A stretch of 34,360 nucleotides of DNA, from the sequence record SRR15195285_3540; one strand, 5' to 3'. The notes beneath the pieces are model-generated. The model was not told the DNA's origin. It did no database searches and saw only the letters and a list, made by a program, of their open reading frames with translations. A program made the position numbers and the translations under genes. Below, one piece after another: positions 1-34,360 of this stretch. Numbering within the stretch: position 1 is the stretch's first letter; each line of letters begins with the position of its first letter.

Positions 1-3000
1 TGCGTTGCCTCCACTGTGCGCCGTGCGCATTAGGTAGAACGGCGCCAAGCTTCCTAGGTGCATAGAATCTCGAGAACTAGACAGAAGCGGAATCCGAACC
101 GCACCGGGGGTCAGCAAAGCGCCAGCTTGTACAACAGAGCCAGAGTTTACAGCTGCCACAACTGCATCGCAAGCTATCGTGGTAACGGCGTCGATCGCGT
201 TTGACTGGGCGTCCATCGCTACCGTTTGAAGCGGGGCAATCACATGAACGCCTCCCAATGTTGCAACGAGAGACGAAGCACAGTCGGCCTGATTTGGGGC
301 CTCGACTACAGATCCATCGTCAAGGGTGCACGTGTCTGTTGCCCAGGTTCCCCCGGTCCCACCTGTGACTCGAACACTTCCTCCAGTGCCTGGTCGAAAC
401 ACCAGAGACCCACCCACGTGCGCTCCATCACTGCCCGCCTGCCCCTGAATGAGAAGCTCAGTGGTGGTCGTCGTCGACAAACTCTCAGAGCTTTTCTGCA
501 TCACAAAATGGCTCGACCGATCCCCCACATCTAGGACGTTCGATTCTGTCAGCAAACGCGTAGTGGCAACAGCATGTGGTGCAGAAAGCATCCCATCAGA
601 CCGCAAGTTTGTCGTCGCGATAGTACCTGCCCCAACCCTCGAGCTCCGCAGAGTAGCACCATCGAGAGCAACAATGCTGCCTGTAGACAGTCGCCTTGCG
701 ACAGTTACTCTGTCCCCCCGCACTCTCACACTGCTATCAGAGCTGCCTTGTAGAATCAGCTCGCTGATCTCTGATCCTTCTCCGGGACGCAGGAGAAGCT
801 TGCCGCCTGGCGCATCAGCGCCACTCTGACCGACAACTGCAGTGGGTCTTCCACTTCCAGGGCCTGCTAGCCTGCCAACCTGGAAATCTGAGTCATCGCC
901 CATCTGCAGGGTATCTGTATCGTGCCCGATGGCAGGCAACTGCACATGGCTAGAACCCATTGCCTGGGACATCACGACACCCTCTGCAGCGCTCACAGAA
1001 GCGGCAGAAAAAACATTGGCAGTCAGAGAGTTAGTTCCAACGTCCACGGGGCCTGTCACAATTGGCTGAGCCATTGCAACATTGTCACCGACTGTGACTG
1101 CAAGTGCTCCACCTGAACTGTGGAGTTGCACAGTTCCATGCACAGCAGTGCCAGCGCCTGGGCGCACAGACAAGTCGCCGCCAATCAGACCACCGCTTTG
1201 CCCTTGGAACACAAAACTCGTCCCCGCTCCGGAGCCACGAGTTGTCCTCCGCATAGTCCAAACGCCTTGCGACCCGAATTCAAGATCACCTGTGTCACTC
1301 AAGTCCTGAACGACCAAGCTGCCATCCACGTCTGCAGTTGTCGTGACGAGTGTAGATGCGTCGACGATGCCAGCATCGAGATTCTGGTCGCCCAGATCGA
1401 TACCTGGCTCGACCGGGCTCCACTGGCAGCAAGCCGTCCAAACATTGTTCACATTGTTGGACAAACACTCCTGTTCTGTGTTGAGATTGTTCATCGCGAA
1501 CTGTATGTTTCCAGAATGATAGACACACACGGCAGAAGAACTGCACGCAGACGCAGTTAGCAGTGTGTGGCATCCGGGCTTGTCAATCCCGTCAGCCGTG
1601 CCTGGGCATCCAGCTGTCATCTTATCGCTTATGTCGATCGAGTCGTCGCCCGCAAGGAAGTTTAAAGCATTGCAGGCCCCGATGGCAAGTTCAGGAGCTA
1701 TCTCCACAAGATCATTGGAGATCGTTACCAAAGTGTCTCCCGAGTGTGGATTGCCAGGGGTAATCTCAGCTGCTCGTATAACAAGATTTCCGTCGCTTGT
1801 TCCACCGTTGCCCCGTAGGCCTGGGCGGACCACGACATTGCCACCTGCACCGACATCACCCTGGCCGGCCTGCCCTTGCAGGACAAAGGAAGCACCTTTT
1901 TGCCGCAGGGACAAGGCTTGGGAATTGCATGTCGCACATAAAATAAACTGGTCGTCGTCACCAAGCAATAGCACATTCGCTGCATCTAATGTCGCGCTTA
2001 GTTTTTGTACGGTTAAATCACCGGTGAAGGTAGTGTCGCCTCGCATCGTGCTTTCGCAAGTCTGTGAGCTTCCACATTGGCTCTGGCTCTTGCCAATGCG
2101 AACCTTGCCAGAGTCGGACCCAATGTACACGCCTCCGTACACAACTTTATCGCCTGAGTAGGTACCGCTAGGTCCACCTAGCTCGGCGCAGATGGATCGA
2201 TACTCGTACGACACCTCAGCACATGACGAGGCAGGGCCTCCATTGGAGTTCGGGAGCTGATACGGTTGTCCAACCAGGTCGTCTGTAGAACCTACATAGC
2301 CGCCTCCATCGATCGTCACTCTACCTCCACGAGCGTCGTTTGCATGTACCGACCCACCCTGTCCGCCAATAAGGTACACGTCGCCGCCGTTAAACACACC
2401 TTCCTCCAGAGAGTTGGGCCCCTTCAACGTCAGACTACCTGTAGCGCCCAAAGCCTTCTTTTGCCCAACAGTAAATGCGGCTGTTCTGTCGGCTGAAGTC
2501 AACGTCGCATCACGATACAGTGTGGCTGTCCCAACGACCTTCGTCGACTCAGTCGAGGCACTTGATGTGTCGCCTGCTGTCAGTATCCCCCCTAGCTGCG
2601 TTCCAGTGGAAACGTGTAAGTCAATCAAGGTGCCTAGCTGGGTGAGCCGGTCAGTAAACAGGCTGCTGTCCGTTAACACGGTCCCTGCCTGCCACAAATG
2701 GCCTGCATCTGAGCACGCTGCCTGGGTGCTGATCGCAACAGAAACACCGGCAGTAGTTGTGCAAGAGCTGCCATCTGGAAAGGTGATGGTCTCGTGCAGA
2801 TTTGTGGCCGCTGGAAACTCCCACTGCAATCCCAGCCCGTCACTGTCATGGTCAAATAGCAGTGGACCAGGAGCACCCGCGGAGGTTGCTGGGGACACAT
2901 GCCCGCTGAACTCAACAAAATGAGACAATACATGACCCATCTCGAATAGGTCGCCGTTGGCGTTCAAAGTTTCAACGGACGCGAAATCACCTGTTGTCAA

Positions 3001-33400: not shown

Positions 33401-34360
33401 ACACGAACAGCGTCGGCTCCCGTGCCTAGTATTGCTGGGGCAGTCACGTTGACATTTGCCGCGTGCGCCGCCGTGTTCCCGAGCGCTGAGATCATGCTTA
33501 CCCCCTGCTTGCTCATAACAGCAGAAGACTGGGAGGTAAGCTGGGCGTCAGCCGCTGCTATCACAGACGCAGTTGAATCAGCTGCTACGCTGGACGAACC
33601 GACAGTGCGCACAGCAAATGTGCCAAATGTAGATGTAGTTTGCACATGCCCTGTTGAGGCAACCCTGAATTCAGAACTAGACGAGGCGAAATGCCGCGCG
33701 CGCAGACCACCCTGAGCGACGGTGTGGAGCTGTACATCTCCGCTTGTGCTCATAGTCCGGAGCTTTGCTGTGGCGCGCACTGTGGCCACAACCGCCCTGA
33801 AGTCCGTTGTGCCTGCAAAAACCTGTAGGTTGCCGAGATCGGCATGCATCTGTACAGCCGAATTGCCGCTCACGGCCACAGATCCACCATACAGTGACGC
33901 CTCTGCGTTTGAAACCAGGGAGACCTGATCAAGAGCGTAAACCAACGCACTACTCGCACCAGAAAGTGATACACCCGAGCTAGTTGCTTCAGCTGATACA
34001 CCCCCGTAAGCCTGAAGCCCTACACCGAGAGTCGCATCAAGATTCAAGTCTTTCGACGCAACTGCACCAACTTTCCTTGCCGTCACCTCCGTCCGATGGC
34101 CATCGAATGTTATCCCCGTCGAGTTCTGGACAAAAAACGTTCCTCCAGCCAAAAATGAGACGCCAGCTGCCATTACACTGAAGTCCGTGACATTGATCTC
34201 AGCGCCGATCGCACTTGCGGATGACAACCTAGACGAGTTCAATTGAATCGCCCTTCGCTCGGCTTCAAACCGCGTTTGTGCTATTCCATATGCAGTGACA
34301 ACGTTGGCTTGGGTTTGTGCTGTTCCACCTAAAGCTGTAGCAGATGCGATTTCAGACGCA
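1..34360 (-). CDS. Giant spliced gene, partial at both ends: join(complement 34359..7065, 6979..6543, 6459..1). Encodes at least 11,397 aa of a beta-strand-repeat, tail-fibre-like extracellular protein with C-type lectin and Cys-rich inserts
   Basis: Three stop-free minus-strand segments are joined in frame by two canonical GT-AG introns (27,295+437+6,459 = 34,191 nt = 11,397 codons). Composition and repeat motifs continue across both junctions. The frame is open at both window edges. Confidence 0.9.
3367..3774 (-). other. C-type lectin-like domain (CTLD) within exon C
   Basis: KVFYLVQ...LTFSDAILYCRNNYEDIASIMTERENVLAADAC...RCMFGG...AWYWSDGSIFSYKNWQGDEG...WQDW...WGFLCQ matches CTLD hallmarks: TF-DA--YC helix 1, LASI----EN, a WIGL-equivalent, W-WSDGS---Y-NW, a WND-equivalent and terminal F-C. 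Confidence 0.88.
6460..6542 (-). other. Spliceosomal intron 2 (83 nt, phase 0)
   Basis: The minus strand reads GCT TCG|GTATGT...GTCTGACAC...ATTTTTTTGGTATTGCAG|GGC AAT. It has a CTGAC branch site (6489-6485), a T7 tract, a TGCAG acceptor and an in-frame TGA. Removal joins EVQVATAS to GNLMIGAGQVAVE in the open frame. Confidence 0.92.
6543..6979 (-). CDS. Exon B (437 nt) of the giant protein
   Basis: This is the core of the listed ORF 6486..6995. It carries two GQ...GGD(V/L)(L/V)L modules of the same family as the flanking exons and is bounded by a TAG acceptor and a GTATGT donor. Confidence 0.88.
6980..7064 (-). other. Spliceosomal intron 1 (85 nt, phase 1)
   Basis: The minus strand reads TTC C|GTACGT...CATTCTTTTTC...CTTGACA...GCATGTAG|GT ATG CGC. 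A candidate branch site TTGAC lies at 7014-7010. Removal gives ELGANTPF-R-MRRPAQAAMHDSGASFTLVGQ, which restores an intact copy of the repeat module (compare AFGEDGAFVLRRPATSAANPGARFDLHGQ at about 5470-5385). Confidence 0.88.
7065..34360 (-). CDS. Exon A (at least 27.3 kb, about 9,098 codons, 5'-partial) of the giant fibre-like protein
   Basis: Corresponds to the listed ORF 6835..34242. The TTG 'start' at 34242 is an internal Leu: the same frame reads ASEIASATALGGTAQTQANVVTAYGIAQTRFEAERRAIQL from 34359 with no stop. The A/S/V/G/T-rich character ends at ...VELGANTPF, exactly at a GTACGT donor (7064). Confidence 0.93.
9218..9260. repeat. Perfect 21-bp tandem duplication, in frame (LLGGEIS-LLGGEIR)
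   Basis: ctgatctcaccgccaagaagg occurs at 9218-9238 and 9239-9259. Confidence 0.95.
13060..13230 (-). other. Six-cysteine ShKT-like module inserted in the beta-repeat region
   Basis: C-ELPDINLVQFGSYS-C-AAAVSYVRKVGAD-C-YADLAGFPAFGVGGSLASY-C-PHA-C-GV-C. The terminal CPxxCGxC is typical of ShKT-type domains, but the spacers are longer than canonical. Confidence 0.6.
18514..18536. repeat. Hexanucleotide microsatellite (gctgcc)x3.8 encoding a Ser-Gly linker
   Basis: gctgccgctgccgctgccgctgc; the minus strand reads SGSGSGS within LGNRSGSGSGSSVSIQ. Confidence 0.85.
19651..19764 (-). other. Second six-cysteine ShKT-like module
   Basis: C-VDAHAFDP-C-VQLLLAGWS-C-AQIAPITN-C-AIARA-C-NF-C: 38 aa, starting CxD and ending CxxC, as in ShKT. 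Confidence 0.6.
28741..29175 (-). other. Phage tail-fibre-like motif block (GIG-TP-LDV / ER-R--SSG type)
   Basis: GVGVGTTTPSVDHAFDV, MLHVDAVRHRVGIGVGSSTPSAVLDVV and AVGAEQDWTADTANADSYLVVQTAQSGLLGERFRLRSSG resemble the xVGIGTTxPxxxLDV and ERMRIxSSG repeats of trimeric viral/bacterial fibre proteins. Recognised by eye. Confidence 0.65.
30950..34360 (-). repeat. Upstream block (at least 1,100 aa) of the same short beta-strand repeats; boundaries approximate
   Basis: Same pattern, e.g. VGAVASKDLNLDATLGVGLQAYGGVSAEAT and VNLRSGASVDASANVDFDLQGGSVSVAAT. Confidence 0.6.

Follow-up and report, generated by a model that had tools for sequence, protein, structure and literature searches.

What kind of protein is encoded by a gene whose reading frame fills a 34-kb stretch of DNA and is open at both ends, and which organism owns it? 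We analysed the sequence record SRR15195285_3540, a stretch of 34,360 nucleotides (nt) that is called the window throughout. The 34 kb of the window lie wholly inside one spliced, transcribed nuclear gene, whose host is a microbial eukaryote from the sea and probably of very small size. The encoded protein combines a very long region of eight-residue repeats (octads) with a C-terminal array of modules that includes domains of binding type. We assign a probability of about 0.5 to the reading that it is a secreted or surface-anchored fibre, in which a trimeric β-helical shaft would carry an adhesive C-terminal head.

Gene structure and splicing

The minus strand contains two long open frames that run off the window, one of 9,174 codons (34359..6835) and one of 2,188 codons (6564..1), and the remaining two minus-strand frames, of ~11,450 codons each, are interrupted by 410 and 530 stops. 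An annotation made earlier from the letters alone (the first-pass annotation) had joined the open frames through two GT-AG introns into a single frame of at least 11,397 amino acids (aa) that fills the window and is open at both ends. Our count is identical, as the join 34359..7065 + 6979..6543 + 6459..1 amounts to 34,191 nt or 11,397 codons with zero stops and both ends open. The G+C content is even along the window (0.55–0.58).

Logan contigs of three RNA runs (X8, X10 and X17) and one DNA run (X1) were compared with positions 1–20000. A single contig of X8 spans both joints and omits 6459–6541 and 6977–7061; X10, which belongs to a different study, yields two contigs that each omit one of these two stretches; and in X17 neither joint is spanned by any contig. 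On the DNA side, X1 has a contig that is unbroken over 1..14402 with both introns included. The omitted stretches end in CT..AC on the plus strand, equivalent to GT..AG on the coding (minus) strand, and the intron borders were placed at 7064..6980 and 6542..6460 after a permitted shift of the cut. The two segments behave as spliceosomal GT-AG introns, being removed from RNA, kept in DNA and flanked by exons whose frame is restored exactly. RNA mapping had been proposed as a check on the splicing, and the joints from the two studies, which are independent metatranscriptome studies, agree, both introns being spliced out in the X8 and X10 contigs. Because the RNA contigs are spliced, a bacterial origin is excluded. 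The translation is further supported by a relative, P0006, which aligns unbroken through both splice junctions with 49% identity over 1,064 columns. The segments of the gene in the window are as follows.

7065..34359, minus strand: exon 1, 27,295 nt (9,098 codons + 1 nt), open at the 5′ end, with its 3′ border from the RNA joint and a splice check
6980..7064, minus strand: intron 1, 85 nt, GTACGT...TAG, phase 1, absent from X8 and X10 RNA and present in X1 DNA
6543..6979, minus strand: exon 2, 437 nt, lying between the RNA joints, with a translation that aligns with P0006
6460..6542, minus strand: intron 2, 83 nt, GTATGT...CAG, containing a branch-like CTGAC, absent from X8 and X10 RNA and present in X1 DNA
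1..6459, minus strand: exon 3, 2,153 codons, open at the 3′ end and continuing for at least 2,706 residues outside the window (in the protein P0011, described below)

P0006 is itself an uninterrupted open reading frame (ORF) on another contig, with no break at the two intron sites of the window, and it ends in a Pro/Arg-rich tail where the frame of the window goes on. Intron positions may differ between relatives.

Full-length protein, relatives and host

Among proteins of 1,184–3,768 aa, a search with the exon 3 protein found only four relatives: P0003 (listed at 100%), P0004 (73%), P0005 (68%) and P0006 (66%, with an alignment that covers a tenth of the query). Relatives at 49–73% identity retain the frame. 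A further protein, P0011, is a 4,856-aa cluster member whose source is the eukaryote proteome collection 'eukprot'. Across the 2,150 residues that it has in common with the window there are 0 mismatches, compared with four for P0003, and it runs 2,706 residues past the end of the window. With these residues the known protein comprises at least 14,103 aa (1.41 MDa) and its N-terminus is still open, in line with the megadalton size that had been predicted. The presence of an identical protein in a eukaryote proteome collection makes the gene eukaryotic, as the first-pass annotation had also held.

All or part of the stretch is contained in 19 of the 21 listed runs (13 studies, marine or seawater), and eight of these 19 are RNA. 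Two leads bear on the identity of the host: in the Protein Atlas the C-terminal modules resemble Chlorophyta-labelled eukaryote clusters (0.93 and 0.92), at low recognition and usable as a lead only, and the source names of P0026 and P0027, members of the P0006 cluster, carry a small-size-fraction label, which is a weak lead.

The family has few recorded members. When a 1,200-aa octad piece was run with phmmer against 1.84 billion representatives, only four fragments of 66–309 aa with 44–65% identity were returned, which means that the family is almost absent from protein catalogues. No relative was found in metagenome contigs scanned with P0003 and P0014, nor in viral (IMG/VR) and prokaryote genome contigs scanned with P0003. 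Protein searches for full-length forms (5,045–16,055 aa) and for upstream fragments gave none, the longest gene model being that of 4,856 aa, and a literature search, partly poorly aimed, found no description of such a protein.

P0003 departs from P0011 after '...QLKAGAG' and continues outside the window as an Arg/Cys-rich tail, which looks like read-through into a third intron that is spliced out in P0011. Residues ~2100–2370 of P0011 contain an exact tandem duplication of ~106 residues (one module), and the window ends within the first copy (window positions 1–120, on the 3′ side of the gene); the duplication is the likely reason that the short-read contig ends there. The DNA run X1 has a loose end at place 35.

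The octad-repeat shaft

A, S, V, G and T are abundant in residues 1 to ~8850 of the spliced protein. The autocorrelation of hydrophobicity has maxima at lags of 8, 16, 24 and 32, the 8-residue periodicity is found in nearly all 200-aa windows up to ~aa 8,800 and in none afterwards, and ~8,000 residues follow a pure 8-residue period. The β-type repeats of the first-pass annotation are thereby borne out, in the form of hydrophobic positions every 8 residues over ~aa 0–8850. In the power spectrum of aa 1950–8850, the z of period 8.0 over shuffled sequences is 31.5 (hydrophobic residues), 14.7 (small residues) and 8.2 (glycine); periods 24, 16 and 12 have less power than in the shuffles (period 24, z −2.6), with no 24-residue superperiod. 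Since three-octad superperiodicity is lacking, all faces of the shaft would be alike, as a threefold-symmetric triple helix requires. Octads set in rows of eight stay in phase over hundreds of residues. One 300-aa octad stretch run with phmmer against the rest of the shaft gave at most 12.4 bits and no true alignment, and no tandem or direct DNA repeats of note were found in the window. Octads that are too diverged to align, together with the lack of DNA repeats, point to an old pattern kept by selection with no recent expansion. The parts of this region are as follows.

30910..34359, minus strand: octad-repeat region A, aa 1 to ~1150, with autocorrelation maxima at lags 8 and 16
28510..30909, minus strand: node, aa ~1150–1950, with weaker octads, GGD-x-x-x-PG turns, two G[IV]G..[TS]P and one ERFRL
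7810..28509, minus strand: octad-repeat region B, aa ~1950–8850, ~860 units in which positions 8 and 1 are hydrophobic and positions 3–6 are taken by small residues
19651..19764, minus strand: six-cysteine insert 1, aa 4866–4903, within the shaft, placed by its Cys positions
13060..13230, minus strand: six-cysteine insert 2, aa 7044–7100, within the shaft, ending in C-x3-C-x2-C

The node matched nothing in Pfam, PHROGs, NCBIfam or the PDB. Both GIGTTxP-like motifs lie in it, as does a GGD-x-[LIV]-x-x-PG turn that recurs in the C-terminal modules, and the fibre may have a hinge or a branch there. The tail-fibre-like motifs pointed out earlier do exceed chance: the counts in the protein (two GIGTTxP-like, one ERxRx and five PDxSG) were reached in none of 300 shuffles. 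The ShKT domain that had been proposed found no backing, as the ShK profile has no match at E ≤ 1 in 1000-aa pieces or in the two six-cysteine inserts. The inserts also match no Pfam family, at E below 0.1 for insert 1 and at E ≤ 1 for insert 2.

Similarity of the shaft to known β-helices

The VgrG needles of T6SS (type VI secretion systems) form a trimeric β-helix, and the needle of phage T4 gp5 has 11 octads. Sarcoglycans have a type II membrane anchor at the N-terminus and a cysteine-rich head at the distal C-terminal end of their stalk. The exon 1 protein was compared with Pfam as ten 1000-aa pieces and as 44 overlapping 400-aa windows. Two families recur: DUF2345 (VgrG) in nine of the 44 windows at E ≤ 0.01 (best E 1.1e-6) and Sarcoglycan_1 in eight (best E 7e-4). 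No other Pfam family occurs in more than one of the 44 windows, and neither of the two is found in the five C-terminal pieces. One 1000-aa piece reaches 31.2 bits for DUF2345 against a cut-off of 30.7; Sarcoglycan_1 stays below its Pfam cut-off, with 22 bits at best against 32.5.

An octad profile was then built from 70 stretches of 64 aa selected for clean phase and run against 177,635 PDB sequences. At E ≤ 10 it returned three chains, all of them gp5/VgrG spikes (9gtr_q, E 0.0054; 6sjl_A, E 0.007; 9vzk_q, E 0.32), and it aligns to the C-terminal part of 9gtr_q and 6sjl_A. The triple-stranded β-helix of gp5/VgrG is built on an octad motif of VxGxxxxx type (PMC4576200), and a regular 8-residue repeat of this type is present in the shaft (period 8.0, z 31.5). 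DUF2345 is described in an excerpt of PMC10715212 as the VgrG domain that adjoins the gp5-C β-helical domain. According to an excerpt of PMC12404760, β-, δ- and γ-sarcoglycan form a trimeric β-helix.

The needle of T4 gp5 and T6SS VgrG (DUF2345; 9gtr, 6sjl and 9vzk) and the shaft appear to share octads with inward hydrophobic and small corner residues. They differ in scale, with ~1,000 octads in the present protein, and in setting, as its gene is spliced and eukaryotic, has no phage or T6SS context and encodes a huge C-terminal binding array instead of a sharp tip. An N-terminal gp27-like hub or an oligonucleotide/oligosaccharide-binding (OB) fold was likewise not found in the ten pieces or 44 windows of exon 1, whose 5′ end is open, and the phmmer search with the 1,200-aa octad piece shows no VgrG relative. 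The extracellular stalk of β/γ/δ-sarcoglycan (Sarcoglycan_1) is eukaryotic, like this protein, and is presented as a trimeric β-helix in the excerpt cited above (PMC12404760); the eight matching windows fall on the stalk part of the profile. In contrast to our protein, the sarcoglycan profile covers 259 positions and the complex is a heterotrimer, and all of the matches are below the cut-off. In sarcoglycans and phage fibres, too, a stalk comes first and a binding head follows at the C-terminus.

PHROGs gave 0 families at E ≤ 0.1 for seven of seven pieces, and the only NCBIfam matches were two weak ones, MinC (E 9e-4) and choice_anch_Q (E 0.011), neither of which comes near its cut-off. Given that the octads match the sarcoglycan stalk about as often as VgrG (eight versus nine of 44 windows), a phage origin of the scaffold is not shown. 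The phage-type fibre scaffold of the first-pass annotation is retained as a likeness, since phage and T6SS spike needles are the only structures recognized in the PDB. No assignment to VgrG, Sarcoglycan_1, ShKT or a phage-fibre family is established; the VgrG hub, the ShK profile and PHROGs were each looked for without a match. By function only, the protein may be compared with giant repetitive surface adhesins, which are likewise megadaltons in size and carry binding domains at the distal end of a long repetitive shaft. Familiar examples are bacterial and built of Ig-like or single-chain β-helix repeats, whereas this protein is eukaryotic, spliced and octad-based.

The C-terminal array

The octads stop at ~aa 8750–8850 and are followed by the C-terminal array.

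1..8109, minus strand: start of the C-terminal array, PDxSG units and ~130-aa modules, with 11 module anchors in the window
3367..3726, minus strand: candidate CTLD (C-type lectin-like domain), from matches to Pfam Lectin_C and PDB lithostathine

The array contains five [FLVMW]PD.SG units and a ~130-aa module that recurs every 121–165 residues with the signature G[DE]D-x2-F-x-[LIVM]-x-R ... GQ-x(5-9)-GG[DN][LIVM]-x-[LIVM]-x-PG-x-G. Anchors of this signature number 11 in the window and 24 in the known protein, 23 of which align as modules (at least 23 copies); the 24th lies in the propeller described below and does not fit the module. None of 300 shuffles reached the module motifs. Pfam, PHROGs, NCBIfam and the PDB contain no match to the module, and a module profile (A2) run against PDB sequences gave 0 matches. 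The AlphaFold2 model of one module, calculated from ten paralogous rows, has a predicted local distance difference test (pLDDT) score of 57, and a Foldseek search of the PDB with this low-confidence model gave 0 matches at E ≤ 0.001.

Three distal domains are of binding type. The CTLD named in the first-pass annotation is kept as a candidate: it matches lithostathine in the PDB (1qdd_A, E 2.9e-5), while Lectin_C, aligned over profile positions 3–106 of 107, gives E 0.003 and 18.7 bits, below the cut-off of 22.6. Outside the window, P0011 contains a discoidin-like domain (F5_F8_type_C, E 1.3e-5, just below the cut-off) and a terminal FG-GAP propeller (FG-GAP_3, E 6.7e-18, 65.5 bits against a cut-off of 26.9, in three stretches).

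Indications of a secretory route

The spliced protein contains 26 N-x-S/T sites, compared with 64.1 ± 6.9 in 300 shuffles (lowest 46), a ~2.5-fold depletion, and the reversed pattern [ST]-x-N is not depleted (61 versus 65.9). Its 98 cysteines are clustered in modules. The depletion and the clustered cysteines together suggest, indirectly, that the protein passes through the secretory route.

Proposed fibre and alternatives

In the reading that we favour at about even odds, the ~1,000 octads, each forming one short β-strand, would most likely stack as a β-helix of triangular cross-section, with three identical chains winding together as in the T4 gp5/VgrG needle and the sarcoglycan stalk. The layer spacing of β-sheets is 4.8 Å, and with one such layer per octad a trimer would form a rigid shaft of ~0.4–0.5 µm. 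The ~750-aa node and two putative disulfide knots would interrupt this shaft. The C-terminal ~5,200 residues would follow as a chain of at least 23 modules with the CTLD, the discoidin-like domain and the terminal FG-GAP propeller, and together the distal domains may attach to glycans or to the surfaces of particles, viruses and other cells. Prey capture, an extrusome shaft, a surface spine and a virus decoy, the uses suggested in the first-pass annotation, are candidate functions. More tentatively, and with somewhat less confidence than we place in a fibre as such, we envisage that an abundant marine picoeukaryote makes a homotrimeric triple-stranded β-helix of ~1,000 layers and about half a micron, a rigid filament tipped by lectin, discoidin and propeller domains that would catch bacteria, viruses, mates or particles; one fold would then be common to phage and T6SS spikes, sarcoglycan stalks and a protist fibre.

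Several observations weigh against a trimeric surface fibre. The profile matches are weak (PDB E ~0.005) and most Pfam matches lie under the curated cut-offs, and the phmmer search of 1.84 billion representatives returned no VgrG-like protein. An AlphaFold2 monomer of 400 octad residues, calculated without an alignment, has a mean pLDDT of 34.9 and is unusable, and a different stacked β arrangement could also fit the 8-residue period. The 5′ end is missing, and hence no signal peptide or membrane anchor is in view; the 14,103 residues known so far are free of transmembrane-like segments. A three-copy complex prediction for aa 6601–6900 scored 0.00 ('no answer') and was counted neither way. As the structure predictions were uninformative, we infer the β-fibrous fold and the trimer from the sequence pattern only.

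The strongest alternative keeps the same gene and the extracellular role and replaces the intertwined trimer by a single-chain β-solenoid with three octads per turn and a length of ~0.16 µm. Single-chain triangular β-helices are common, no trimer evidence was obtained, and a weak MinC match of the C-terminal part (NCBIfam, E 9e-4) and a Protein Atlas cluster with a 15% bactofilin share both point to single-chain β-helix folds nearby. The faces of such solenoids are usually unequal, however, and the shaft has no 24-residue superperiod (z −2.6); moreover, its sole PDB likeness and its recurrent Pfam likenesses are to three-chain helices. We regard the solenoid as unlikely, though worth keeping in mind. 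Less probable again is a protein that lacks the function of a fibre with a binding head and has a structural role in a wall, scale or matrix, or serves as a scaffold inside the cell. The missing 5′ end and the lack of a transmembrane segment would suit it, but the distal CTLD, discoidin-like and FG-GAP domains are binding modules, and the shortage of N-glycosylation sites, like the cysteine knots, speaks against a cytoplasmic protein. Very improbable is a capsid fibril encoded by a giant virus of a marine protist: some giant viruses have spliceosomal introns and long fibrils, fibre-type motifs are present, and the Protein Atlas look-alikes of the node are phage hypothetical proteins (0.90 and 0.89, recognition below the mark), but the identical protein lies within a eukaryote proteome collection, the IMG/VR scan and the seven pieces run against PHROGs gave nothing, the module look-alikes are eukaryote/Chlorophyta clusters, and three related versions at 66–73% identity look like sister-species orthologues.

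Implications

In the trimeric fibre, a known structural principle would be realized at an extreme scale, in a host where it was not expected. An excerpt of a review terms the T4 gp5 needle by far the longest helix of this kind. If the triple β-helix of the present protein is real, it would be the longest by far, tens of times the T4 gp5 needle, and the first giant one in a eukaryote, and stiff protein rods could be modelled on it as a natural template of diverse sequence. Transcription of the gene in seawater, seen in several studies, makes it probable that the product is a real surface structure of a plankton cell that is common. It could influence how viruses adsorb and bacteria attach, and also aggregation and sinking. 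The locus also shows how poorly giant eukaryotic genes are captured in protein catalogues.

Other features of the window

A scan of the window against Rfam gave no match. Two plus-strand ORFs, 4046-5341 (431 aa) and 21911-22804 (297 aa), have no match in Pfam and were rejected as antisense artefacts; they probably result from the codon composition of the coding strand.

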